Below, piece by piece: positions 5,756 through 32,469 of a DNA stretch of 32,469 bases. The stretch is taken from IMG/VR virus record IMGVR_UViG_3300017721_000660, positions 1 to 32,469 of that record; one strand, 5' to 3'. The stretch's first letter is position 1; each line of letters begins with the position of its first letter. This DNA comes from a virus. Taxonomy: Duplodnaviria; Caudoviricetes. The translations under genes were made by a program, and so were the position numbers. The notes beneath the pieces were generated by a model, which saw only the letters and a program-made list of their open reading frames with translations, was not told where the DNA came from and did no database searches.

Positions 5756-6805
5756 CTAGGAAACCACGTCTTCAGTGTTGAGGATCGCGTCGCAACGACG
5801 GATCGGAATGCCCATGAAGGACAGGTATTGGCGCGCCGTGCCGTAGCTCGACAAACCCTGCTCAATCGTCAGGACTGAGGACTGCTTCTCCATCGCCATG
5901 CGCGACAGCGCGCTGTGAACCGTCCGGTTCATGTAGAACGCCGGCTTGCACATACCCAGGTTCGGGACGCGGTAGATCGCCTCCGCCATCTGGTGGATGA
6001 TGTTGGTGGTGTATGCGGTCATCGCCTGTTTGCCAGTGAAACCGGCGAGTTCGCTGACCATGATGTTGCATACGCGCGCGGCGTAGCGCCAATCCTTCAC
6101 GACCAAGCCCATCTTCCAGCAGAACCAGTCGACGAGCGCCTGCATCTTGCCGGTGTAGGTGCCAGTGCCATCAGCAGCAGAGAAGATGTCGACCGATTGC
6201 TCGCCGAGATCCTTTTGCTCCAGGCCGGCGGAGCTCCCCTTCGGGAACACAAAGTGGCAGGTCTCGTCAGACCAACCGATCAGGTAGATCGAAGTCTGCG
6301 CACCGCCGCCGGTGCCTTCGCAGTCGAAGATGTTTTGCGCGTTGCCCGCGGACAGCGAGCTGTAGCGCGGGGCGATACCCATGAACTTCTCAGGGTTAGC
6401 GGCCGTGTTCCCGTAGAACATCGTGGTCGCCATCTCTTGGTTCATGGCTTCGAGGCGCATGCGCGCTTCTGACAGGCGCAAAGCGCGCTCGTCGTCTTCA
6501 AGGCTGGCGAGCGCAATGTCGACCTCAGAACGTGACTCCAGCATGCCGATGCCTTCGTCGATCTGTGCCGTCGTGCCGTGGCTCGGGTAGACGCCTTGGT
6601 TGACTTGGCGCCAGTAAACGTCCGGCAGGCCGGTCGCGACGGTCACACGGTGTGATGTCGGGCCGTTGGCCATCTTGAAGACGCCGTCGTCGAGGATCTC
6701 GTTCGACTGCGAGAGAATGTTCGCGATGTCGGCCATGGAGCCGTTCGGGTCGCGACGCTTGGCCCAGTCGGCCAAAGTGAGATTAGTGGTTGGAAGAGTT
6801 GCCAT
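5756..6805 (-). CDS. Major capsid protein (Bbp17-like, HK97 fold)
   Basis: 349 aa. LTLADWAKRRDP...ILSQSNEILDD...TGLPDVYWRQVNQG...FYGN...GLVVKDWRYAARVCNI...FMGIPIRRCDAILNTE. Confidence 0.93.
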   Translation of the reverse strand: MATLPTTNLTLADWAKRRDPNGSMADIANILSQSNEILDDGVFKMANGPTSHRVTVATGLPDVYWRQVNQGVYPSHGTTAQIDEGIGMLESRSEVDIALASLEDDERALRLSEARMRLEAMNQEMATTMFYGNTAANPEKFMGIAPRYSSLSAGNAQNIFDCEGTGGGAQTSIYLIGWSDETCHFVFPKGSSAGLEQKDLGEQSVDIFSAADGTGTYTGKMQALVDWFCWKMGLVVKDWRYAARVCNIMVSELAGFTGKQAMTAYTTNIIHQMAEAIYRVPNLGMCKPAFYMNRTVHSALSRMAMEKQSSVLTIEQGLSSYGTARQYLSFMGIPIRRCDAILNTEDVVS

Positions 6806-16762: not shown

Positions 16763-18871
16763 TCATAACACTCGCTCCTCTAGCCACTTGCGACCACGAT
16801 CAGTCACCTCAATACACTGGTGTCGACCCGTGCCAGAAACCACGACAAAGTTCAGACACTCCTTGAGCTCGCGCCACAGGGCCCGCCACTGCACCTGCGT
16901 CAATTCACCTGCAGCCACAGCTTCCAGCTCCGTCGAGCGGGTGCCGCGCATGATCTCGATCAGCACCTCCTCGACCACCGCCTGCATCGGTGCGGGCACG
17001 AGCTCGGGGTCGCTGCCGTTCTTCCACGGAACGACGATGCCGCCGGTCTCGATCTCGCCGTGCCGGTCCTCGCCGAGCTCGACGCTGCAAATCTCAAACG
17101 CGATAGCTTCGAGCCTCTGCCAGTTCTTGCACTTGACCGGTTGCACCTTGACCAGATCACCGGTCCGGGTCCACGGCTCGACAGTTTGCGCGCCGAATGC
17201 TTCAGCGGCCGCTGGTTTGCCGGCGCCGCCAGGAACCTGCGAGATGCGGAACTCGGCATCGGCAGCCGCGATGAAGACACTCGAACCACGAGCGCGCGTG
17301 TCCTTGTCCTGGCCAGAGTGATGCACGAATCCAACCAAACAACGGAACGCGCGCTGCATCGCTGCCGCGTTCGCCATCGCAGCACTCATGTCCTCGGTGC
17401 TGTCCTCCGATCCGCGGCCATAGTTTGTCGCGAGCGTGTCGACGAGAACCATCACAGGCTCCTCACCGAGCGCGTCGACAATCGCTTGCGCGTGTCGCTG
17501 CATGTGCTCTGCATCGAGCAGCTGCGTCGGGCTCGTCGAGAACACCACCGGCACCGTCGCCGGATCGATGCCGCGGATCGAACACTCGGCAGCGAAGCGC
17601 GCGGCCACGCCGCTACCATCCTCGCCGACGATCACCGCGACCGGCCCGTGCAAGTGCACAGCCATGCCGTGCCAGCTGCTCTCCCCGCATGCGATTGCCA
17701 TCGCGAGAGACAGCGCGACGAGGCTCTTGCCCGCGCCGGGTTTGCCGAACAGCTGCACCAATCCGCGCCGCGGCAGGAACCCCTGGACTGCAAACTCGGC
17801 CGCGCCCATCCAGTCACGATAAGCGGCGCCGTCCATGTAGAGCGGCACGTCGGATGTTGCCGCGCGCGGCCCTGCTTCATCTGGCAACGGTGCATCGCTC
17901 CAATCTGCCGGCAATGGCGGCGGCTGCGTCGCATCGGGCGCGAGCTCGCACAATGTGCCCCACCCTGGCCGATGCTCCGGTGGATCCACAGCAAAGCTGT
18001 TCCATCGCTTCTCTGCGTCGTCTGCGCTGTAGTTTGGCGCCGTCGCGCTCCACTCGTCCCAGACCTCGAACGGCATGCCCAACTTGAAACAAGCCATGCC
18101 TGCTGCGATCCACGACTCGTGCGGCTCTGCATCGATCTGCGACAGCATGTGCTGCACCTCGCGAATCGTGCGCGGCACCTCCGATGTCGAGCTCGACTCG
18201 CGCTCGGGTCGACGCAGCAGCTCGACCATCGGCGCCGGTGGATCGTCCTCGCGCAACAGTCCCCACTCGCCTGATGTGTTGCCGATCACTTCGCCGGTCA
18301 CCGTCAGGTAGCGTCCGCTTGTGTAGCACTCAAGGTGTGCACCACTGCCGAACGCATTGCGCGACGAGCTCCGCCAACTCGCCGGCAATGTGCCGGCGTA
18401 TATTTGGTGCACGCCATCGCGGCCGGGGCTGCGTTCCGTGTAGGTCGGCGGCATGCGCCGCAACATCTCGTGCGCTGCATCGAGCAGCGTGTTGTTCGCG
18501 CCGATCACGTGATCGTAGTCGACAGCGACGAGCTCCTGGCCATCGATCATCACGCCGAGACATGCGACGCGATCATCTGCGAGCGCATACCCGCACGCCT
18601 CCTCGAACGACATCCACGTCGCGCGATCCGTCGAGCTCGCCGCGCCGCCCGAGTAGCCCTTGCTGCTCAGTGGCGCCTTGCTACTCACGGTGCGGCCGTC
18701 GGCGCGCGTGACCGGGCTGCGATCACCGCACACCCAGATCCGTCGTCGCCTCAGTTCGCCGGGCACGTTGCGCATCACGCGCGAGATGTCGTCGGCTGTG
18801 ATCCGAGGCAAAATATCGAGCCTCGGTCCTTTGCGGCCGTGCAGGCCGTCGCTATTCTTTTCAGCAGTCAT
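16763..18871 (-). CDS. Primase-polymerase/PriCT-2/AAA_25 (RepA-like SF4) primase-helicase
   Basis: Start ATG 18871 with an AGGAG RBS; 702 aa. AEP-like N-terminus (ASSTDRATW, VDYDH, YTERSPGRDGVH); PriCT-2 (WIAAGMA...WDEWS...KRWNSF); helicase motifs GKPGAGKS, VLVDTL, HHSG..RARGSS. Confidence 0.88.
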   Translation of the reverse strand: MTAEKNSDGLHGRKGPRLDILPRITADDISRVMRNVPGELRRRRIWVCGDRSPVTRADGRTVSSKAPLSSKGYSGGAASSTDRATWMSFEEACGYALADDRVACLGVMIDGQELVAVDYDHVIGANNTLLDAAHEMLRRMPPTYTERSPGRDGVHQIYAGTLPASWRSSSRNAFGSGAHLECYTSGRYLTVTGEVIGNTSGEWGLLREDDPPAPMVELLRRPERESSSTSEVPRTIREVQHMLSQIDAEPHESWIAAGMACFKLGMPFEVWDEWSATAPNYSADDAEKRWNSFAVDPPEHRPGWGTLCELAPDATQPPPLPADWSDAPLPDEAGPRAATSDVPLYMDGAAYRDWMGAAEFAVQGFLPRRGLVQLFGKPGAGKSLVALSLAMAIACGESSWHGMAVHLHGPVAVIVGEDGSGVAARFAAECSIRGIDPATVPVVFSTSPTQLLDAEHMQRHAQAIVDALGEEPVMVLVDTLATNYGRGSEDSTEDMSAAMANAAAMQRAFRCLVGFVHHSGQDKDTRARGSSVFIAAADAEFRISQVPGGAGKPAAAEAFGAQTVEPWTRTGDLVKVQPVKCKNWQRLEAIAFEICSVELGEDRHGEIETGGIVVPWKNGSDPELVPAPMQAVVEEVLIEIMRGTRSTELEAVAAGELTQVQWRALWRELKECLNFVVVSGTGRHQCIEVTDRGRKWLEERVL

Positions 18872-18897
18872 CGTTCTCCTCTGGTAAGGGGGACACT

Positions 18898-18944
18898 CGC
18901 AGGCCGCGCACGTCTTAGGCAACGTGTGCGGCCTGCGTTCTTTT
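18898..18944 (+). terminator. Intrinsic terminator-like 16-bp hairpin on the plus strand, antisense to the primase leader
   Basis: CGCAGGCCGCGCACGT-CTTAGGCA-ACGTGTGCGGCCTGCG (one G.U pair) followed by TTCTTTT. Confidence 0.65.
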
Positions 18945-19073
18945 CGGGAGGGAGAAAGCTACCGCCGGGGCGCCCAATAAAAAACTTTGGAATTAGTTCA
19001 GACACTACTGGACACCTTCCGACAGATAGTGTTGAAGAGGGGCTCGCGAAAGTCCTATACACAACCAAACACG

Positions 19074-20054
19074 ATGACTAACTCAAACTCAACCGACCGC
19101 AACACCGCCCGCAAGATCGCCAACTTCCTCGCCAGCAACATCCCGCAATGCGACATCTCTGGTTGGGATTGCGTCAACTCGCCGTTCAGCTGCGACCGTC
19201 TGCTTGAGCGGCTCGATGATCCCCGCAGGAACGACTACTACTACGTCAAGACGGAGATGGACGGCTCGCCCGTGCAGAGCACGCTCGCCGACCTCGAAGC
19301 CTCGCTCGCTGGCGACAAGAACGCCGCAATCGACACCAAAGTGCTGAAGGTGACGGTGCTGCCCGAGGACCAGCAGACCATCAAGTGCTGGCGCACCTTC
19401 GAGCTGCTGACGCTCAAGGACGCCATCGAAGAGGTCAAGCGCACCGGTCGCCACAGCATCATTGGTCGCGTCGGCCTCTGGCCGAACGGCTCACGCGAAG
19501 CTCGCAGCTACGTCGGCAACGTGATCTACGAGCAGACCGACCCCGAAGGCTACGCCAAGATGCTCGCCAAGATCGCTCCGACACCGGAATACAGCTCCGC
19601 TGAGCAACTAGCTGACGCAAGGGCTACCGAGTCGACCAGCCCGGAGGTCGTCGACGAAGTCGTCAACGAGATCCTGGGCGACGTTAACCGCGCCAAGGCC
19701 GTCGTCGACGCAGCGTTCCCGAAGCCGACCCCCAACCAACAGCTTCCACAGAACATCGCACTCGCCCTGACGCTCTCCGCAGAAGGCACTCCTGGCCGCC
19801 TTTCACTGCGCGAGATTGACCAACACATGAACGATATGGATGACGGCTGCACCATCACGGTGAATGGCTACCAGTTCATCTACTCACCCTATCGCGGCAT
19901 CTTGATTGTCTGGCAACCTGATGGCAATGGTTGGTCAACTCTGATTGGTTACGCCAGCAACTACGAAGCGGAGCGTGTTTACGAGATGGCTTCTGCTGTC
20001 GGCTTCAGTGATCGGCGCGGCAGCAAAGGCACGGGTCGCTACTCGATGCAGTAG
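19074..20054 (+). CDS. Hypothetical early protein, 326 aa
   Basis: ATG 19074 in an AAACACGATG context similar to neighbouring starts; strong C/G third-position bias over most of the ORF. No family recognised. Confidence 0.75.
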   Translation: MTNSNSTDRNTARKIANFLASNIPQCDISGWDCVNSPFSCDRLLERLDDPRRNDYYYVKTEMDGSPVQSTLADLEASLAGDKNAAIDTKVLKVTVLPEDQQTIKCWRTFELLTLKDAIEEVKRTGRHSIIGRVGLWPNGSREARSYVGNVIYEQTDPEGYAKMLAKIAPTPEYSSAEQLADARATESTSPEVVDEVVNEILGDVNRAKAVVDAAFPKPTPNQQLPQNIALALTLSAEGTPGRLSLREIDQHMNDMDDGCTITVNGYQFIYSPYRGILIVWQPDGNGWSTLIGYASNYEAERVYEMASAVGFSDRRGSKGTGRYSMQ

Positions 20055-20060
20055 CTGACC

Positions 20061-20123
20061 GGGAGGTCCGGTGCTACTTCGCATCGCTGACGATGACCGC
20101 AGCAACGGTCGAAACCTCACCCC
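20061..20123 (+). ncRNA. Type III hammerhead ribozyme
   Basis: GAGGUC^ (cleavage triplet GUC 20066-68); stem I CGGUGC/GCAUCG with loop UACUUC; core CUGACGA plus an extra U; stem II GACCG/CGGUC with loop CAGCAA; core GAAA; CCUC closing stem III. Fills an intergenic gap. Confidence 0.9.
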
Positions 20124-20138
20124 ACGGAGAACAGAACG

Positions 20139-20612
20139 ATGACTCAACCAACTACACTATCTGCAACGGAATCCGCCAAGTTGCTCCGCAAGGATCTGCG
20201 GAAGGCATTCCCCGGCACCAAGTTTCGCCTCACTGGTAGTCGCGGCACCGGCTACGGCTACTACGATTGCCGCTGGACCGGCGGCCCGAGCGAAGAGGAG
20301 GTGCGCGAGATCGTGCGCCCATACCAGGGCTCCTACTTCGACGGTTCACAAGACCTCGAAGTCGGCATCGCTACCGCTATCGGTATCGCCATCGCCATCT
20401 GGTCCGACGGCGGCGTGCTGCGCTCTGGCATGCGCAGCATCTCGACGCGACGCGATCCAAGCGACGCCGAGTTGGCAGCCGCTACGGACACGCTGCGGAC
20501 GCTGTGGGGCTTCACCGGCCCCGAGCACAGCCTGCGTATGGCCGCCGACATGGTAGCCCGAGGCGCCGAAGTCGGCGCCGCAATCCAATACTGGCCCCTC
20601 ACCAAAGACTAG
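20139..20612 (+). CDS. LPD29 (large polyvalent protein domain 29)-like protein
   Basis: 157 aa. AKLLRKDLRKAFPGTKF...RWTGGPSEEEVREIV..YQGSYFDG..D is the LPD29 pattern. Confidence 0.8.
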   Translation: MTQPTTLSATESAKLLRKDLRKAFPGTKFRLTGSRGTGYGYYDCRWTGGPSEEEVREIVRPYQGSYFDGSQDLEVGIATAIGIAIAIWSDGGVLRSGMRSISTRRDPSDAELAAATDTLRTLWGFTGPEHSLRMAADMVARGAEVGAAIQYWPLTKD

Positions 20613-20624
20613 GAGAACAGAACG

Positions 20625-20804
20625 ATGGACAAACACGAATACCACGAGCGTAAAGAGGAACTGAGCGACGCCGAAAAGCTTGCTTGGCTCACCAAGAACT
20701 GGATACTGCCGATCAGTTGCCAGGACGTTATTTGGCTTTGCAAGCTAGCCGCCAAAGGTCTTGAACGCGCTTCCCTCAACCAGTCAACCAGCCAGGAGAA
20801 CTAA
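20625..20804 (+). CDS. Hypothetical protein, 59 aa
   Basis: Not in the ORF track. GGAGAACAGAACGATG start motif. Sequence: MDKHEYHERKEELSDAEKLAWLTKNWILPISCQDVIWLCKLAAKGLERASLNQSTSQEN. Confidence 0.75.
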   Translation: MDKHEYHERKEELSDAEKLAWLTKNWILPISCQDVIWLCKLAAKGLERASLNQSTSQEN

Positions 20805-20807
20805 ACG

Positions 20808-21029
20808 ATGAAAGTAACGAACCAAGACGTAGCTAACCGTCTTCGCCGCCATTCAAACTTCATGAATCTGAGCATTAACGACGTTGAGTTTGCGTATGAC
20901 CAGCTCCGAGACGAAGCCGGGAACCCGCAGCGCATGCGAGGGCTAGGATTTGTTAGGGGCGTGGGAGAAAAGCGAGCCGAACAAATCTTAGATCTGCTTG
21001 AGAGCATGATTGACCGGCAGGAGAATTAA
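20808..21029 (+). CDS. Small protein with a helix-hairpin-helix-like motif
   Basis: 73 aa. LGFVRGVGEKRAEQIL fits the HhH GxGxxxA pattern; strong RBS. Confidence 0.7.
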   Translation: MKVTNQDVANRLRRHSNFMNLSINDVEFAYDQLRDEAGNPQRMRGLGFVRGVGEKRAEQILDLLESMIDRQEN

Positions 21030-21032
21030 ACG

Positions 21033-21755
21033 ATGACTACCTACACCGACGACAAGTTCAACGGGCGCAGCACCACACCGCTGCGCGTCTTCGCGAAAGA
21101 CGGCACGGCCATTCCCTTCGCCACCCCGTTCACCAGCCTGCGCGAAGTATGCGAAGTGCTGCGCGCCGAGGGCGACAGCTTCTCGATGTCGCTGGTCCGC
21201 GACATCGAATCGGTGCGCGGCCCGACGGCCAAGCAGGCGGCCTGGGCGCACAAGCTGGCGACCGACGCCATCACGCCGCGCACCGTCGAGCCGACGCTCG
21301 GCGACCTCGCGCCGGTAATCGCCATGCTCGACAAGGCAGCCTCCGCGCAGAAGCGCATGCCCAAGATCGAGCTGGTCGCACGCGACAACAACGGCCGCAC
21401 CCAGCGCGTCGTAATCAAGCGCCGCAAGGACGGCAGCGCTGCCGTCACCGACGGCCGCCCTTACGGCGACAACACTCTGTTCGGGTTCGTCGAGCTCGAC
21501 GGCAACTACCACCCGACGCGAGGCAACTCGGCAGAGGTCGAGACCGTGCTGTGCGAGCTCGCCGCCGACCCGGCCAAGGTCGCCGGCCAGCACGGTATCG
21601 CCACCGGCAACTGCTGCTTTTGCAACACGGCGCTATCTGACAAGCGCTCGCGCAGCGTCGGCTACGGCCCGACGTGCGCAGGCAAGTTCGGCCTGCCATG
21701 GGGCGACACCAGCGCCGCCGACGCCGCCGACGCAGCGGCTAGGGAGGTGCTGTGA
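21033..21755 (+). CDS. DUF6011-like Zn-ribbon protein
   Basis: 240 aa. C-terminal GNCCFCNTALSDKRSRSVGYGPTCAGK; N-terminal FSMSL...TAKQAAWA. Confidence 0.8.
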   Translation: MTTYTDDKFNGRSTTPLRVFAKDGTAIPFATPFTSLREVCEVLRAEGDSFSMSLVRDIESVRGPTAKQAAWAHKLATDAITPRTVEPTLGDLAPVIAMLDKAASAQKRMPKIELVARDNNGRTQRVVIKRRKDGSAAVTDGRPYGDNTLFGFVELDGNYHPTRGNSAEVETVLCELAADPAKVAGQHGIATGNCCFCNTALSDKRSRSVGYGPTCAGKFGLPWGDTSAADAADAAAREVL

Positions 21756-21856
21756 CGTTCTCTCGTGCCCGCTTTGCGCGCGAGCTCTACAGTGCTTGCG
21801 TCTTTATCGTTGTTGTAATTATCGGCGGCCTCGCTGCCATCTGCTTGATCAAATGA
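21752..21856 (+). CDS. Small membrane peptide, 34 aa
   Basis: GTGA overlap upstream and ATGA overlap downstream; GGAGG RBS. Sequence: MTFSRARFARELYSACVFIVVVIIGGLAAICLIK. Confidence 0.6.
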   Translation: MTFSRARFARELYSACVFIVVVIIGGLAAICLIK

Positions 21857-22080
21857 TGAACCTCTACGAAGTCACCGGCATGGAGGCGCGCGACCGCGCC
21901 ATCATCGCCGCGCCGCACCCTACGTCTGCCGACGAGCTCTGCCCGTTCTACGTTAGCACCATCGAGCAGGTCGGCACTGTCGACACCGAGCCCGCGCGCG
22001 TGCTGCTCGCTGTGCACACGCACGCCCACGGCTCTGACGAGGAGCTCGACGTGCTCGACAGCGAGGGGCTGGTCGAGTGA
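21853..22080 (+). CDS. Hypothetical acidic protein, 75 aa
   Basis: ATG 21853 is coupled to the preceding stop, and its TGA overlaps the helicase start. Confidence 0.6.
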   Translation: MMNLYEVTGMEARDRAIIAAPHPTSADELCPFYVSTIEQVGTVDTEPARVLLAVHTHAHGSDEELDVLDSEGLVE

Positions 22081-23405
22081 TCCCCTTCTCCTACCAACGC
22101 GTCGGTATCGACTTCTTGGTCGACAACAAACGCGCGGCCCTGCTCGACGAGCCAGGGCTGGGCAAGACCGGCCAAGCGCTCGAAGCGATCAACCGGATGC
22201 AGGCCAAGCGCACGCTGCTGATCGTGCCGCTGGTCGTCGTCCCCAACTGGGAGCGCGAGCTCGGCATGTGGTCGCCCTGGGCCAGCTACCAGCGGCTCAA
22301 GACCGGCAGCGCCAAGGTCGACGCGGACGCGTCTGTCGTGATCTGTCCAACTTCGCTGCTGAGTCGACGCAACAAAGTCGTCGAGCAGCTGGCCAGTCAG
22401 GACTGGGACGTGGTCGTCGTCGACGAGGCGCACCACTACAAGAACCACGAGTCGACGCGCACAGTGAATCTCTACGGCCGCGCAGGCATCGCCGTGCGCG
22501 CCGAGCACCTCTGGCTGCTGACAGGCACGCTGGTGCCGAACAACCCATCCGAGGTCTGGACGCACCTGCTGCATCTGGCGCCGGAGGAGATGACGCACAA
22601 CGGGCGCCCGATGTCGCACTACGCATTCGTGCAACGCTACTGCGAGTTTGAAGAGACGCGCTTCGGCCGCAAGATTGTCGGCGCCAAGAACACGGCCGAG
22701 CTCCGCGACATCATCGACAGCTGCTCGCTGCGGCGCCTACAGCGCACCGTGCTGGCGGACCTGCCGGCAATGCGCCGGTCGACCGTCGACCTGCCCAAGC
22801 CCACCAGGAAGCAGATGGCGCCGTTGTCGGATCTGCTGGACAGGATGTCCGAGGAGCTACGCACCGACGTGCGCAAGCTCGACGGCGCCGAGCTGTTGCA
22901 GGTGTTCCAGCAGTCTGACAGCTTCAGCACCTACCGCCGCCTGTGTGGCGAGCTCAAGACCGAGCTAGCCGCCGAGTGGCTGCGCGAGGAGCTCGACTCT
23001 GGCCTAGCCAAGGTCGTTGTGTTCGCGCAGCACCGTGGCGTCATCGAGGAGCTCGCCGGTGCGCTGACAGACTACGGCGTCGAGCAGATCCACGGTGGCG
23101 TCGGGACCGACGCGCGACAGGCGGCCGTCGACCGGTTCCAGCAATCGACGGCGTCGCGTGTGATCATCTGCCAGCTGACGGCCGCGTCCGTTGGCATCAC
23201 GCTCACTGCGAGCACCAACGCCGTATTCATCGAAGCCGACTGGGTGCCCGGCACCAACATACAAGCCGAGAAGCGCATCCACCGTATCGGGCAGCAGCAC
23301 CCAGTGCTGGTCCGCTACTTACAGTTGGCCGACTCTATCGACCAGATCATCACAGAGGCGCTGGTCGTCAAGACCAGCATGATCGCGGCCCTTGAAACGG
23401 CCTAG
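22077..23405 (+). CDS. SNF2-related superfamily 2 helicase/translocase
   Basis: 442 aa. Q motif FSYQ, Walker A DEPGLGKT, DEAH, LTGT..PN, VGITLT, QAEKRIHRIGQ. Confidence 0.92.
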   Translation: MIPFSYQRVGIDFLVDNKRAALLDEPGLGKTGQALEAINRMQAKRTLLIVPLVVVPNWERELGMWSPWASYQRLKTGSAKVDADASVVICPTSLLSRRNKVVEQLASQDWDVVVVDEAHHYKNHESTRTVNLYGRAGIAVRAEHLWLLTGTLVPNNPSEVWTHLLHLAPEEMTHNGRPMSHYAFVQRYCEFEETRFGRKIVGAKNTAELRDIIDSCSLRRLQRTVLADLPAMRRSTVDLPKPTRKQMAPLSDLLDRMSEELRTDVRKLDGAELLQVFQQSDSFSTYRRLCGELKTELAAEWLREELDSGLAKVVVFAQHRGVIEELAGALTDYGVEQIHGGVGTDARQAAVDRFQQSTASRVIICQLTAASVGITLTASTNAVFIEADWVPGTNIQAEKRIHRIGQQHPVLVRYLQLADSIDQIITEALVVKTSMIAALETA

Positions 23406-23414
23406 CCTTATTAC

Positions 23415-23442
23415 TTGACACCACTGGGCAGGTCCTTACAGT
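23415..23442 (+). promoter_or_regulatory. Sigma70-like promoter for the replication operon
   Basis: TTGACA (23415-20), 16-nt spacer, TACAGT (23437-42), in the intergenic gap before 23468. Confidence 0.55.
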
Positions 23443-23467
23443 CCTGCGCTCAACCCACTAGACAATC

Positions 23468-23917
23468 ATGAAGATCTCAATCAACGTCACGCCCGAATCA
23501 CCCGAAGAACTGGCTCGCCTGTTCGCTTTTATCTCTGGCCGCGACGGTATCGAGCTGCCGCCTCTGGCCGCCGCTGATGTCGCGAAGGCATCCGCCGAAG
23601 AGAACGCGCTAGCTGACGCCGAAGAGGCGAAGAAGCCAGCGAAGAAGCCAGCGAAGAAGGCAGCGAAGAAGGCGCCCAAGAAAGCGAAGAGCGCCGACAC
23701 GAAGGAAGCACGGCAGGTAGAAGCTACGGCCGACACACGCAAGCAGGTCGAGCTCGACTTGCGCGCGTTCGCTGCCGAGCACGGCATGCCCGAGCTGCGC
23801 GACGCGCTCAAGGCCGCCGAGCTGCCGCGTCTGCAAGACGCAGCCGACGCTGACCTTCCCAAGTTTCGCGCAGTTATCGATGGCCTGCGTGCGTCGCAGC
23901 AAGGGGACCTGCTCTAA
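23468..23917 (+). CDS. Hypothetical protein with a KKPA/KKAA-repeat linker
   Basis: 149 aa containing AKKPAKKPAKKAAKKAPKKAK, at the usual position upstream of DUF2800. Confidence 0.75.
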   Translation: MKISINVTPESPEELARLFAFISGRDGIELPPLAAADVAKASAEENALADAEEAKKPAKKPAKKAAKKAPKKAKSADTKEARQVEATADTRKQVELDLRAFAAEHGMPELRDALKAAELPRLQDAADADLPKFRAVIDGLRASQQGDLL

Positions 23918-25047
23918 TGGCTGCGCACGCCAAGCTCTCACCATCTAGCGCGAGTCGCTGGATGGCCTGCACCGCCGCGCCGCAGGCATGCGCTGGCGTG
24001 CGCGACGAATCGTCAGAGGCCGCCGACTTTGGTAGCTTCTGCCACGACATTGCAGCCCGCGCTTTGTCGGGCGGTAAGGACGCGACCTCCTGGCTAGGCC
24101 GGAGCTCAGACTGCGGCCGCTTCGAGATTGACGCCGAGACCGCCGACCACATACAGACATACCTAGACGCGGTGCGGTTCGCGCTCGACGTGCACGGCGG
24201 CGAGCTGCTCGTCGAGCAGAAGGTCAAGTTGTCCGATGAGATATGGGGGACTGCCGACGCCGTCATCCTGCCCGCCAAGAACGGCGGCGAACACCTGATC
24301 GTGATCGACCTGAAAATGGGAGCCGGTGTCTACGTCGAGGCGTCGTCGGTGCAGCTGGCGATCTACGCAGGCGCCGCAGTCCGCACCCACGGTCTCGATC
24401 CGAAAACGATTACGGCCGCGGTCGTGCAGCCGCGCCACCACCAGGGCGAGGCGTGGCGCGAGCACATCTACACTCGTGACGAGCTCGACCATGTAGTTCG
24501 CAGCGTCGAGGCCGCCGCAGTAGCGGTGGTGACAACGCCTAAGTTCCAGGCTGGCGACCACTGCATGTTCTGCCCGGTCAAGGCGACGTGCGCCGCACGG
24601 CGTCAGACGCGACTGGCCGAGGCGCAGGAGGCGTTCTCTGAGAGGCCCGCACCAGACACGCTGACAGACGAACGCGTCGCAGAGCTCATCCTGGCGGCGC
24701 CTGATGTGAAGCGCTGGCTCGATGACCTGGAGACCTACGCCCGCAAACGAGCGGAGATGGGCTCCGGCTACCCAGGGCTGAAGCTAGTCCAGAAAGTCGG
24801 GCTGCGCACGTTCTCTGACGAGGCACGCGCCGAGACTTACTTGCGCGACCTCGGCATCGACCCCCTGGTGACTAAGCTAGCCTCGCCTGCTGAAGCGGAG
24901 CGCAGGTTGGCTGCTGGTGGGCTGACGAAGAAACAAGCTAAAGCCTCGACAGGCCCTATAACACACAAGCCAGTGCGCGGTGCGCTCCTGGTCCCCGTCT
25001 CTGATCGCAGGCCAGAGTTTAAGCCTGCAACATTCCCAACCAACTGA
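23917..25047 (+). CDS. DUF2800 family PD-(D/E)xK (Cas4-like) exonuclease
   Basis: 376 aa. HAKLSPSSASRWMAC, WGTADAV, VIDLKMGAG, QLAIY, GDHCMFCPVKATC. Confidence 0.9.
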   Translation: MAAHAKLSPSSASRWMACTAAPQACAGVRDESSEAADFGSFCHDIAARALSGGKDATSWLGRSSDCGRFEIDAETADHIQTYLDAVRFALDVHGGELLVEQKVKLSDEIWGTADAVILPAKNGGEHLIVIDLKMGAGVYVEASSVQLAIYAGAAVRTHGLDPKTITAAVVQPRHHQGEAWREHIYTRDELDHVVRSVEAAAVAVVTTPKFQAGDHCMFCPVKATCAARRQTRLAEAQEAFSERPAPDTLTDERVAELILAAPDVKRWLDDLETYARKRAEMGSGYPGLKLVQKVGLRTFSDEARAETYLRDLGIDPLVTKLASPAEAERRLAAGGLTKKQAKASTGPITHKPVRGALLVPVSDRRPEFKPATFPTN

Positions 25048-27801: not shown

Positions 27802-28058
27802 ACACCACCACGAAGTTTGCAGAGCTCGTCGACCGGGCGTCTGTGTATGACCGGATCGAGACCGAACGGCCTATGCCCAAGCGCGCCGTGGCCAAAGAGC
27901 TCGGCATATCACGCGCCCACCTCTACGCTCTGATGGCGGCGAAGCATGCACCCATGCCGCACATCAAAGCGCGCTTGATTCGGGGGTTCTCTAAGATGAC
28001 GGGCCTGAAGCCGGGCACTGTCCGGCGGTGGCTCGAAGCCGACTGGGAAGTGCTCTAG
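27798..28058 (+). CDS. HTH DNA-binding protein
   Basis: 86 aa. KRAVAKELGISRAHLYALM is an Xre/Cro-like HTH; ATGA overlap with the polymerase gene. Confidence 0.75.
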   Translation: MNTTTKFAELVDRASVYDRIETERPMPKRAVAKELGISRAHLYALMAAKHAPMPHIKARLIRGFSKMTGLKPGTVRRWLEADWEVL

Positions 28059-31000
28059 CGCCGCCCCGTGAAAGCGGACATGCCCGCGGGCTCGATCTTC
28101 TCTTCGTCGAATATGTCGAATCCGCGGCGCAGGCGCTGCGTTAGCACGTGGAGCGGTATGCCGACCATCTTAGCCGCGAGCTCAAGTGAGTTGAGCACGT
28201 CGGATCTGTCGGCACCGTCTTTTATGAGGTTTGCTGCGGTGCGACCTAGCTGGTCGATGATGGCGATGGCTGCCGGCGCCGGCATACGTTGCTGGTAGGT
28301 GAGGTCGCGAGACAGTGACGGCACGACGAGCGGGATAGCTTGCGCGGCCACCGTGCCCCCGAAAGCGCCGACAGGGCCGAGCGCGCGAGGCAAGGCCAGC
28401 GCCGTCATCAGCAACGGGTCGATCAGCCACGTATCGAGCGCGTCCTTCTCTTCGTCCTCTTCGGCGCGGAAAGCCGTCGCGATGAGCTCGCCCATGAACA
28501 GCGTGAAGAAGCCGGCCATGGCCTCCTTGGACATGACCACGCGCAAGACCCACATGGCGCGGGTGCCTTCGTCTTGGCGCTTGGTGAGTGACGCGCGGCG
28601 CATTGCCGAGGCCCTCATCGAGCCGAGCGACAGGAACCAGGACAAGAACTGCGTCCACATCTTGGCGAAGCGGCCGCCCTTCTCAACCTTCGCCATCGAA
28701 GTGACTGCGGTGTCCGCTTGCGTGCGCCTGACGGCGCCGTCGGCTGCGTTGACTGCTTGGCTGTCGCCCTTACCTTCATCGAGGGCCTGCGCGTATGCGC
28801 CACGCCACACGATCAGGTCGACCGGGTGCTGGATGATCTCCTGCATCCAGTAGGTGTTCTTAGATAGCCATCGCTGGGCTTCCTTCAGCGACTGGAACTT
28901 GCCCGACTCGACAAGGTTCAGCACGCGGTTCTGCATCTCGAACGCAGAGACGCCGAGCTTGTGTCGCGTCGCCATGAACGCCGACAGCTTGTAGATGTCT
29001 GCCTTGGTGTGGCCTCCACTCATGCCCTCCATGAGATAGCGCATCTTGACCTGCCCCGACATGCTGGCGAGCATGACACCAGTCACGCCCTGCATCGAGT
29101 TGACCACGTTGGCGAACATCGCGGCCGTGCCGTAGTTCGATCGCAGCTTGTCGACGAAGTCGATACCGTCGAGCATGTCGGCGCCGCGAGCACTGACTAG
29201 CGTGCTCGACAAAGTGGCCGCGGTCTCCATGAACGGGTCGAGGATGTTCTTGTAGATGCCAGGAGACATACGCTCAAGCAATGCCTCCACGTCCCGCTGG
29301 CGGAGCAGCGTGGCCACCTTCTTATGCGCCGGGCCCATCTGCGCGAAGATGATCGACTGCCGGAAGTGCATGATTTGGTTGATCGGGTTGATGTCCAGCG
29401 GGTCCGGGTCTGGCTCATCGACGCGGTTCTTTGTGTGCCCCTTGTTGATCGTGGCGATGGATCGCTGGAAACCCAGCAGGGTGTCTTGCGCGTTGCGCTC
29501 CCCCTTCGGCGAGCGCAGATCAGCGTCGCGTCCTGCCGGCACGTAGCCCCCGCGCACGTCAACGACGGTGCCGTCGGCCATCGCACGTTGTTTGAGCACG
29601 GGCATGCCCTTGTCCACGAGCTCCATGCGGCGCCCGAGCATGCTGTAGTGTGCTTCCTGCGTCATCGGCAGGAGCTCCTCTTCGTAGATGTCCCAGACTC
29701 CTTGGCAGAACTCCCAGTCTGCGGCCGTGATCACGCCGGCTTCTTCCCATTGGCGCACCTGCTCCCACCACCGGGTCGCGTCAATGCTGCCGTCGGGGCG
29801 GAGTGTGGCCCAGCCGAAGCCGAGCAGCAGGCGCCGAAGGTTCGACTCGTTACCGCAGTGCAGGAGCATCCCGAGGATGTCCATCTTGCCGTTATCCAGC
29901 ACGTCTGGGTCTTCGGTCTTCTGCGTCCTATCGGGCAGCAGCGCGGCGCCTGTGGCGTCTGTGCCCGTAGTGATCGGCCGCGACAGCTCGGCGCTTGCGC
30001 CGACTTCGTCGCGCACCCGGCGCAGCAGGGGCTCCAGCTTCTCGATCACGGCCGCTAGGTTGAGCTCGACCTGATCCTCTGCCTTGCGGAGAGGCACGAA
30101 GATCAGCTGGGACAGCAAGCCCTGTTCGTCGCCGTCCATAGCGTAGAGCAGGGCCTCGACCCGCTGGGTCGTGTAGTTCCACTGGCGGATCTTACCCTTG
30201 ATCGTGCCCCGCATAGACTTGTCTGACTTGCGTGACTTCTCTGGTGTCGCCTCGGCCTCGACCTGCTCGCGCAGGCGCCGAAGGATCTCGTCCAACTGAG
30301 CGCTCCGACCTTCGAGCTCGAACACGCGGGCCCACTTACCCTGCTGCAATACGCCTTCCACGTATTCGAGCGACTCCATTGCCTGCTCGACAGTCTGCTG
30401 CATGAGCGCGCCGTCCGTCGAGATCACGGACTGTATGTCGCCGAGCGCCTGCTCTAGCGACTGGCGCTCGGGGTCCGCCTCGTTTAGCCCAGTCCATGGG
30501 TCTCCCTGACTGCGGAGGCCAGAGCCGACCTCTACGCCTAGCAGGTCAAGCATCAACCTTGCCGTCTCGACAGTGGCGCCTCCATAGTTCTGAGCGAGTG
30601 TGTCCTCGCGCTTGCCGTTGCCGGGTCGATACTTCAGCCGAGAGCGCAGCCGGTCCTGGTGCTTCTCTAGCACCTCGCGCATCTTCACGGCCTCGTTCGC
30701 CATGGCGCGGAAGTAGAGCGCCGTCCGTTGGTGCAGCCCGACTTGCGTAGGATCGCCGCGGTGCAGTAAGGCTTTCTTCTCTGCGCGGCGGGCCTGCTCG
30801 GTAAACTTGCGGACCACGTTCTTGCGCCCGAACAATTCGCCGGCCGTCAGCGCGCTAACATCTTGCCTCGCGATCTCCTTGGCTACGCGCACCATCTCTC
30901 GATACGACGGGGGCAGCTTCCCGAGCAGTTTGATCTCCGCGGCGCGTAGCTTAACGAGGGCCTCGTTACTGAGCGACGCGTCGATCTCGTATTGCATCTG

Positions 31001-32469
31001 CTCTGGGTTCGCTAGGTGCGGCACCTCAGCGAGCATGCGTTCGTCGGTCGCGTCGTTGACCATGTTGGTCAGCGCCGCGCCGGCCGAGTCACCCGAGAGT
31101 GTGTATTTAACGCTGCCCGCTTGAGCCTCGCGCTGCTGGCGCTCCTCGCCGACCAACGCACGGCGGAGCTCGTCGAACATGGTGTCGGCCGAGCTGTAGC
31201 CCAGGTCTTGCGCAAACTCCTCGACATCGGTGATCTCTGCTTGCTCCACGTTGTCTGTTCGGTAGCGCTCAGGCACGCGCTCGTCAGTGGTCAAGAACGC
31301 ACGCAGCCGCTTACCTTCAACGCCGGCGGCGCCCTTCTTGGCTACCGCGACGCGCTTCTCTTCCTTCTCGATAGCGGCTTCGGCCTGCTTAACTTCAGAC
31401 CGCAGGGCCTTGAGCTCGTCTTTTGCCGCAGTGCCTGTGCTCGCCAACCCCTGGATCTGCGCTTCGGTGTCCGCAAGGAAAGCTATCGTTTGGTCGACCA
31501 GCCCCTGGTTGGGTGTCGCCGCTTTACGCAGCGTGGCGAGCATCTTCTTTTCTGCCGCGAGGTCGGCACGTAGACGTGCCAGTTCAGTCTTTGTGTTAGC
31601 GACGGTGGCGTCGAGCTCAGGCTGGCGCTCAGTGAGCTCTTTGCTCCGCTCGTCCCGCTCTTCCATCGCGATGCGCAGCCGCTCCATGGCGCCGTCGAGC
31701 CGCATCTGTAGCGAGGCTTGGCTGACCGTGCCGTTCGCGTTCAGGAGCTCGCCAGAGCTCAGGAAATTGAGTATCCGCCCGATGCGGTCGGTGCGTGCGA
31801 TGCGATTCCGTTCCTCTGCCTCGCGCTTCTTGCGTTCTGCACGGCTGCTACGTTGTAGCTTGCGCGCTGCGCGGCCGCGCAGGGTTCGCAGCTTCTTGAG
31901 CTCTGTCATAAGGACGGCGCGCAGCTTCTCCTTGGCCTCGCGTTCGTGGTCGAACACGAGCTCTTGGAGCAGGATCTTGTCGAGCTCGTCTAGGTCGTCG
32001 GTATCGGTCACGCGCAGGAGCCGGCCGATTGCCTCTTCGCGAATGCGCAGTTCGATCTCTTCCTCGGCGGCTAGCCATCTGTCGAACACCTGTCGGACAT
32101 CGTCGTTGAGCTCCGGCAGCGTCTCCACCTCCTCTACCGTGATCACGAGGTTTCCGTCTTCGTCAAACTGTTCGGGTGGCGCCGGCTTGCGGCTGGCAAA
32201 CTCATCCTCGTAGTTGCGCGTTACGCTTTCGCGCACCTTCCGGTAGACCCGCAAGATCGCTTTCGACAGTCGACCAAAGACACCACTCAATTCTTCGGAT
32301 GGTGCCTTGCCCTCATACATGTATATCTCGAAGTTGTATGCGACGGCCTCGTGCATCTGCCGGCGGGCTTCTGCAGGTGCCGTGATGTAATCTTCGAGAC
32401 TACTGAACTGGTCCCCGCCGAACTCGTCGACCAGGATTGACATGTCGCGCAGCTGCTCAGGGCTGGCCA
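28055..32469 (-). CDS. Very large internal virion/DNA-ejection protein, 3' part; the frame is open to the right edge
   Basis: More than 1470 codons with no stop upstream of ATG 32443. Helical throughout. HEAVAYNFEIYMYEGKAPS..L..VF near the edge, long coiled coils, and C-terminal WRGAY...ADGAVRRTQ...WTQF typical of podophage ejection/polyvalent proteins. Confidence 0.75.
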   Translation of the reverse strand, partial: ASPEQLRDMSILVDEFGGDQFSSLEDYITAPAEARRQMHEAVAYNFEIYMYEGKAPSEELSGVFGRLSKAILRVYRKVRESVTRNYEDEFASRKPAPPEQFDEDGNLVITVEEVETLPELNDDVRQVFDRWLAAEEEIELRIREEAIGRLLRVTDTDDLDELDKILLQELVFDHEREAKEKLRAVLMTELKKLRTLRGRAARKLQRSSRAERKKREAEERNRIARTDRIGRILNFLSSGELLNANGTVSQASLQMRLDGAMERLRIAMEERDERSKELTERQPELDATVANTKTELARLRADLAAEKKMLATLRKAATPNQGLVDQTIAFLADTEAQIQGLASTGTAAKDELKALRSEVKQAEAAIEKEEKRVAVAKKGAAGVEGKRLRAFLTTDERVPERYRTDNVEQAEITDVEEFAQDLGYSSADTMFDELRRALVGEERQQREAQAGSVKYTLSGDSAGAALTNMVNDATDERMLAEVPHLANPEQMQYEIDASLSNEALVKLRAAEIKLLGKLPPSYREMVRVAKEIARQDVSALTAGELFGRKNVVRKFTEQARRAEKKALLHRGDPTQVGLHQRTALYFRAMANEAVKMREVLEKHQDRLRSRLKYRPGNGKREDTLAQNYGGATVETARLMLDLLGVEVGSGLRSQGDPWTGLNEADPERQSLEQALGDIQSVISTDGALMQQTVEQAMESLEYVEGVLQQGKWARVFELEGRSAQLDEILRRLREQVEAEATPEKSRKSDKSMRGTIKGKIRQWNYTTQRVEALLYAMDGDEQGLLSQLIFVPLRKAEDQVELNLAAVIEKLEPLLRRVRDEVGASAELSRPITTGTDATGAALLPDRTQKTEDPDVLDNGKMDILGMLLHCGNESNLRRLLLGFGWATLRPDGSIDATRWWEQVRQWEEAGVITAADWEFCQGVWDIYEEELLPMTQEAHYSMLGRRMELVDKGMPVLKQRAMADGTVVDVRGGYVPAGRDADLRSPKGERNAQDTLLGFQRSIATINKGHTKNRVDEPDPDPLDINPINQIMHFRQSIIFAQMGPAHKKVATLLRQRDVEALLERMSPGIYKNILDPFMETAATLSSTLVSARGADMLDGIDFVDKLRSNYGTAAMFANVVNSMQGVTGVMLASMSGQVKMRYLMEGMSGGHTKADIYKLSAFMATRHKLGVSAFEMQNRVLNLVESGKFQSLKEAQRWLSKNTYWMQEIIQHPVDLIVWRGAYAQALDEGKGDSQAVNAADGAVRRTQADTAVTSMAKVEKGGRFAKMWTQFLSWFLSLGSMRASAMRRASLTKRQDEGTRAMWVLRVVMSKEAMAGFFTLFMGELIATAFRAEEDEEKDALDTWLIDPLLMTALALPRALGPVGAFGGTVAAQAIPLVVPSLSRDLTYQQRMPAPAAIAIIDQLGRTAANLIKDGADRSDVLNSLELAAKMVGIPLHVLTQRLRRGFDIFDEEKIEPAGMSAFTGRR

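Follow-up and report, generated by a model that had tools for sequence, protein, structure and literature searches.

A complete type III hammerhead ribozyme lies at positions 20063–20118 (+ strand) of the window, i.e., the whole 32,469-base virus record IMGVR_UViG_3300017721_000660, ahead of a gene encoding an LPD29-domain protein. The motif is a real type III hammerhead and is probably active. As judged from the sequence comparisons described below, the ribozyme is an accessory part that moves among gene cassettes. This analysis contributes evidence that close relatives have gained or lost it, nearly identical copies that differ in whether an extra U is present in the core, and a warning on construct design.

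Sequence and Predicted Structure of the Hammerhead Motif

The core criteria for the hammerhead class were taken from Perreault et al. (2011; PMC3088659). The core was found to be complete, with C3 U4 G5 A6 N7 G8 A9, G12 A13 A14 A15, U16, and H17 located at 20067–20068, 20087–20093, and 20111–20114. The 5′ strand of stem III, including U16.1, spans 20063–20067 and is followed by C17 at 20068, with the predicted cleavage point between 20068 and 20069. Stem I (20069–20086, 6 bp) pairs 20069–20074 with 20081–20086 and would become the 5′-terminal hairpin of the 3′ product. C3–A9 occupies 20087–20093, with G5 at 20089, and the extra U at 20094 lies between A9 and G10.1. Stem II (20095–20110, 5 bp) pairs 20095–20099 with 20106–20110, and G12–A15.1 (20111–20114) leads into the 3′ strand of stem III (20115–20118). 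The stems comprise 6, 5, and 4 bp plus U16.1-A15.1, and the G10.1-C11.1 pair forms when the extra U is set aside. Loops close stems I and II and stem III is open, which is the type III topology. This sequence check bore out the positions that the first-pass annotation had given for all the core elements, including G5. Stems I and II were assigned from sequence and fold, and the motif as a whole from sequence, fold, shuffles, and covariation.

Extended (fast) hammerheads carry the motifs UNmYN in loop 1 and RNnA in loop 2, as given in PMC2632901. Measured against these, the loops agree in part: loop 1, UACUUC, matches UN3YN and loop 2, CAGCAA, ends in A, but loop 2 begins with C instead of a purine and is thus half of RNnA; loop 2 of the Schistosoma hammerhead likewise begins with C (PMC2632901). 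The one-nucleotide insertion after A9 had been described as a known natural variant, which was confirmed in two systems. The (+) hammerhead of CChMVd has a natural extra A between A9 and G10.1, and a U at this site made trans-cleavage 3–4-fold faster (PMC3705267). The place of the insertion is the same in both, while in CChMVd the natural base is A and the role is in viroid replication. Our own reading of the Agrobacterium HH3 primers (Table S1 of PMC3088659) gave the core, a U after A9, and a three-pair stem II; as HH3 belongs to a tested array, the extra U is not new.

The minimum free energy structure of the isolated 56-nt motif was the hammerhead secondary structure (−18.6 kcal/mol, z −1.68); 9 of 200 shuffled sequences folded equally well. 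Both strands of the window were searched with a type III descriptor that tolerates a one-base insertion, with stems of 4, 3, and 3 pairs as the loose limits. It returned a single match in the whole window, whereas 1500 dinucleotide-shuffled versions gave no match, loose stem limits included. The Rfam search proposed earlier as a check was negative: Rfam 15 gave no hammerhead at the gathering threshold or at E ≤ 10 in the window, in 18500–24000, or in 20040–20140. It also gave none in 10 further loci, 8 of which carry hammerhead-like motifs, and the gathering threshold missed 20 of 20 loci of the same viral hammerhead family (see below). The motif resembles Rfam Hammerhead_3 (RF00008) in its open stem III, core nucleotides, GUC triplet, and loop–loop U/A pattern. 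It differs from it in falling below the threshold, in the extra U, and in its DNA-phage context, the Hammerhead_3 model having been built on sequences of plant and viroid origin. Comparison of the locus region and of the motif with annotated phages by blastn gave weak, partial matches only, and hence no cultured carrier.

Genomic Context of the Ribozyme

The gene content of the record follows a podophage plan (GP7 capsid, Bbp16, Bbp19, head–tail connector, terminase, primase, SNF2 helicase, nuclease, SSB, and family A polymerase). The names of the Bbp proteins presumably point to a likeness to the Bordetella phage BPP-1. Marine metagenomes, one of which may be its source, were the best matches to the record among 24 runs; no RNA run was listed among the matches, which has no bearing on expression. 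The primase gene is directed leftward, and a block of small genes runs rightward from 19074 into the replication genes. From this layout, the small-gene block would be early and co-transcribed. The labels “early transcript” and “first early gene” of the first-pass annotation keep the gene layout as their basis, but a sigma-70 scan gave no sigma-70-like promoter upstream of the ORF that starts at 19074; its matches lay at 20998–21026, within the cassette array, and at 23415–23442.

The LPD29-domain gene (20139..20612, + strand) encodes 157 aa and matches Pfam PF18847 with an E-value of 1.8e-15. Its ATG at 20139 lies 15 nt past 20123, the distance annotated earlier, and is 20 nt past stem III and 70 nt past the predicted cut. 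It is included in the first of four copies of an RBS-start repeat (20124..20142, + strand), the copies beginning at 20124, 20610, 20793, and 21018.

The upstream ORF (19074..20054, + strand, 326 aa) had no Pfam or PHROG match and apparently joins two genes in frame that in relatives stand apart or have different ends (P0011–P0016 and P0017). Residues 1 to ~219 are common to relatives, the ends of which diverge thereafter, and residues 220–326 (107 residues) are 84% identical to P0017, a stand-alone protein of 111 aa. A protein search with this C-terminal module in viral contigs returned the identical contig only. The GC content of 19731–20054 is lower (0.56 vs. 0.62–0.69). In the simplest history, a cassette made up of the small gene for this C-terminal module plus the ribozyme would have entered at the RBS repeat.

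Viral Hammerhead Family and Its Placement

A family pattern that fixed four pairs of stem II in addition to the core and the extra U, with stems I and III left free, returned 123 viral stretches, and ~230 were estimated for the collection. Complete hammerheads made up 103 of the 108 distinct matches listed, the corresponding value with shuffled flanks being 2.5%. Of these 108, 35 were type III hammerheads, including one that duplicates this locus exactly, 68 were of type I, and 5 fitted neither type. In the alignment of the type III members (35 rows, 33 distinct), 96.6% of the 528 cells were paired, with 167 double changes. The covariation score was 0.791 as against 0.167 when shuffled (0 of 500 shuffles as high) and 0.085–0.123 in slid controls. 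The covariation check suggested in the first-pass annotation was thus strongly positive for the type III family, in rows that had been selected for having stems and with four stem II pairs preset by the pattern; owing to this selection, the completeness of 103 out of 108 is the cleaner evidence. Under one fixed stem rule, loop 1 began with U in 21 and loop 2 ended in A in 22 of the 35 type III members.

Dropping the extra U from the pattern gave ~350 viral stretches; of 118 distinct matches listed, 12 were type III hammerheads and 100 were type I. The extra U is therefore common and not rare. In bacterial genomes, matches to the family pattern were mostly due to chance, a complete hammerhead being present in 20 of 120. 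Extra-U type III hammerheads ahead of an RBS were observed in two Patescibacteria/Saccharibacteria genomes (L228 and L299).

Of 34 type III members, 17 had a Shine–Dalgarno sequence plus start codon 5–60 nt downstream on their own strand (2 of 33 on the opposite side; 7.4% at random positions), as did 48 of 66 type I members (1 of 63 and 14.5%, respectively). A site between a stop codon and an RBS, as at this locus, is typical of the family. Downstream proteins were scanned in 28 cases (15 after type III and 13 of 48 after type I hammerheads), along with 2 extra upstream proteins. Most of the 28 were assigned to no family; the matches included an excisionase-like HTH protein, an Arc-like repressor, a MoxR-like ATPase, and FtsK, and one of the 28 was an anti-restriction protein (ArdC-like, L026). 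Four records (L013, L028, L081, and L109) contained 2–3 extra-U hammerheads each within 1.5 kb, every one preceding a gene, a layout resembling the published clustered hammerhead arrays. This reveals a practical gap: an estimated ~230 viral stretches match one pattern, and Rfam 15 detected none of the 20 loci submitted to it.

Near-Identical Copies and Absence in Relatives

A search with the stem I pattern returned 2 viral and 23 metagenome stretches, among which the L200 match, whose length and coordinates are those of the window, is not independent of this locus. Two near-identical copies of the motif were found. In L059 (the same as L202), a single loop position is changed, and the motif lies 9 nt past the stop codon of a short first gene and ahead of a MoxR-like ATPase gene. 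In L203, the motif lacks the extra U and is flanked by two small genes, the second of which belongs to no known family. Each copy lies ~9–10 nt past a stop codon and directly before the repeated RBS motif of its own record, and the flanks of the three loci share little outside the 56-nt motif. Among the other stem I matches, inspected by eye, L198 and L204 were type III and L194, L195/L208, L205/L209, and perhaps L199 were type II, and the remaining 12 had no hammerhead core. The stem I strands of the type II hammerheads L194, L195, and L205 are identical to those of the type III motif, as are the stem II strands in L205, which suggests circularly permuted relatives.

The complete 45.8-kb genome of a relative (G001) has the primase, the intergenic region, the upstream ORF, and the downstream genes in common with this record, and its corresponding block contains neither the ribozyme nor LPD29. 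Two core-like matches in G001 were rejected as hammerheads, being inside long open frames and stemless by eye. In the runs X3, X4, and X6, contigs matching the start of LPD29 diverge upstream of 20126, where they run into C/A-rich sequence that is unrelated; the joint in X4 (19637/20126) rests on 24 letters on one side and was never used alone. As G001 and these relatives lack the ribozyme, it is dispensable. The comparison shows, at the level of sequence, that the ribozyme has been gained or lost independently of its neighboring genes.

A descriptor search found no hammerhead upstream of LPD29 in any of 63 other LPD29 loci (~51 distinct), and one of the 63 (L157) had a type II hammerhead ~200 nt downstream of the gene. 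A link to LPD29 was rejected because of this result, the LPD29 genes of relatives without the ribozyme, and the near-identical copies before unrelated genes. The suggestion that the ribozyme serves LPD29 or other anti-defense genes was not sustained either, with a single anti-restriction protein among the 28 downstream proteins; the anti-defense role of LPD29 is itself only a prediction (PMC5512222, PMC13551039). A distant LPD29 carrier, L002, shows repeated promoter-like cassettes at 850–2800, each with a hairpin and an RBS, before small genes, and no hammerhead core was found anywhere in this complete record. Relative to P0003–P0005 and the runs X3–X6, a short repeat in the LPD29 gene of the present record (20380–20405) is longer by a 12-base insertion, which adds 4 residues.

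Two natural comparisons are thereby available: the same LPD29 gene with and without the ribozyme in close relatives, and three settings of a single 56-nt ribozyme, with the extra U present or absent.

Competing Hairpins

Two further hairpins (+ strand) were predicted near the ribozyme. In hairpin B (20045..20086, z −3.06), C17 and stem I pair with 20045–20062, where the upstream ORF has its last codons and its stop. Hairpin C (20034..20060) would tie up the 5′ arm of hairpin B while leaving the hammerhead free to fold. When forced, the hammerhead and hairpin B states were predicted to be 1.6 kcal/mol apart. The full hammerhead fold was predicted at 3–21% at 37°C and 5–39% at 20°C for RNA starting at 19950–20030, at <0.5% for RNA starting at 20045, and at 32–38% for RNA starting at 20061, in a model that does not include tertiary contacts; the low values in context are predicted to result from competition by hairpin B. 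The minimum free energy structure of the construct 20050–20135, which the first-pass annotation had proposed for in vitro cleavage, was hairpin B. This construct is predicted to misfold and could give a false negative.

Hairpin B had a predicted probability of 0.44–0.85 in free RNA at 37°C and ≤0.05 with a ribosome footprint on the last three codons, and the stem I probability rose from 0.05 to 0.35–0.76 with the footprint (19990–20145). The joint hammerhead probability with the ribosome was ≤0.165, and free-RNA values for other window choices reached 0.21. At 20°C, hairpin C was predicted to outweigh hairpin B even without the ribosome. Upstream complementarity at p < 0.05 was detected in 1 of the 36 type III members tested, which was this locus, where ~2 were expected by chance. 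The p-value here was 0.02–0.08 in a test picked after the hairpin had been seen, and the idea that hairpin B is far beyond chance failed on it. Hairpin B is absent from L059 and L203.

Proposed Function and Alternative Explanations

Transcript processing, as a general tuning of cassette-gene expression without specificity for LPD29, is the best reading of these sequence patterns and is considered reasonably likely. The region would form one early transcript, as the gene layout suggests, and the accessory type III motif, placed between a stop codon and the next RBS, would cut this polycistronic RNA after 20068 without the help of a protein. The 3′ product would have a 5′-OH and a defined 70-nt leader to the LPD29 start, opening with the blunt stem I hairpin. 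Hairpin ends with a 5′-OH resist 5′-end-dependent decay. The 5′ product would end in a cyclic phosphate 14 nt beyond the upstream stop, and the upstream piece would decay on its own schedule. By analogy with the engineered RiboJ, the 3′ product may be more stable or better translated. RiboJ was derived from the sTRSV hammerhead, and its self-cleavage yields a standard leader that carries a terminal hairpin before the RBS, as cleavage at this locus would; it is, however, engineered, placed directly after the promoter, and provided with an added hairpin, and the analogy is functional only. RiboJ increased mRNA ~twofold and protein two- to tenfold (PMC6206723). Unmasking of the RBS by cleavage was not supported, since the predicted Shine–Dalgarno accessibility was unchanged (0.52 vs. 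0.51).

It is unlikely that the ribozyme is an active but near-neutral passenger, which came with the preceding cassette (~19731–20125) through recombination at the RBS repeat and, whether or not it cleaves, hardly affects expression here. Such an origin would agree with the fusion-like upstream ORF and the lower GC content of 19731–20054, with G001 and the relatives at the 95% level that lack the ribozyme and whose LPD29 gene meets other DNA at 20126, and with the possible attenuation of the ribozyme by hairpin B. Against it, the 56-nt motif, which differs by no more than one change across three records with unrelated flanks, and the orientation and distance to start codons held by the family, point to selection on the element generally, though the identity of the copies would equally follow from recent transfer. 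It is hardly conceivable that the motif is a chance look-alike or dead. The missing Rfam match and the modest folding z would fit such a motif, but no shuffle of the window produced it, near-identical copies occur elsewhere, and the Rfam gathering threshold equally misses the family loci and loci with canonical cores.

A translation-coupled switch, in which hairpin B would hold the ribozyme off until a ribosome at the end of the upstream ORF melts it and allows cleavage, seems very doubtful. It draws on the small predicted energy difference between the two states, on the predicted loss of hairpin B and gain of stem I under the ribosome, and on the inhibitory and permissive upstream structures of the HDV ribozyme (PMC4615214), to the P(-1) hairpin of which hairpin C may be likened. 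Hairpin B is, however, not conserved in the family or in the two near-identical copies, its arm is a coding sequence with the protein end retained in P0017, the gain in the full fold with the ribosome is within the free-RNA spread, and at 20°C hairpin C prevails without any ribosome. That phages swap a ready-made hammerhead insulator among early cassettes and that the upstream gene end was tuned here into an off-switch hairpin is, as a combination, a long shot; if true, this would be a translation-gated self-cleaving ribozyme, cutting only once the ribosome finishes the upstream gene. Highly improbable, too, is a role as a decay trigger, whereby cleavage would open an entry for host exonucleases, shorten the life of one or both products, and limit early expression in time. 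In the glmS system, cleavage followed by RNase decay reduces expression (PMC6765202), and the 5′ product here would end 14 nt past its stop without a terminator; the 3′ product, on the other hand, would begin with a blunt 6-bp hairpin, a geometry tied to higher mRNA levels with RiboJ.

Comparison With Known Phage Hammerheads

The transcript-processing idea for phage hammerheads is already published by Perreault et al. (2011; PMC3088659). In that study, prophage hammerheads were reported to flank variable genes, and processing into gene-length mRNAs was proposed; three arrays were cleaved in vitro, cleavage of the Agrobacterium array was seen in E. coli as well, and 4 out of 18 hammerheads fitting the consensus were inactive. 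A triple array with ardA downstream was described in Agrobacterium tumefaciens C58, and the HHphage motif of the haloviruses HF1/HF2 precedes an early gene by 13 nt, a transcript 5′ end having been mapped within 3 nt of the hammerhead. Similar to these phage and prophage hammerheads, the present motif is intergenic, is located just ahead of a putative early or counter-defense gene, and has non-constant neighbors. It is a single copy, whereas the Agrobacterium array is a cluster, and it is of type III, whereas an open stem II (type II order) is apparent from the primers for Agrobacterium HH3. As compared with the set of Perreault et al., it is shown directly here that close relatives have gained or lost the element and that nearly identical copies of it occur in contexts unrelated to one another. 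A literature search, with most subscription papers outside it, returned no paper devoted to extra-U phage hammerheads, and the role of phage and bacterial hammerheads is listed as open in two reviews (PMC6155905, PMC6765202). For that question, this locus supplies natural comparisons without answering it.

Additional Features of the Record

A 16-pair hairpin with a T-rich tail (18898–18937) lies between the divergent primase gene and the rightward block; it is retained in L130 with loop-side changes and is a candidate terminator, origin, or operator. Three GACA words with 10-base spacing (18999–19025), all retained in L130, are located upstream of the rightward ORF and are followed by a conserved 24-base stretch; this arrangement could be a promoter or a regulator-binding element. 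A leftward ORF of 1462 aa (28055–32443) had PHROG 9880, to which no function is assigned, as its sole match and likely encodes a virion or ejection protein. In L130, a small early gene contains an exact 60-base tandem duplication (5869–5988).
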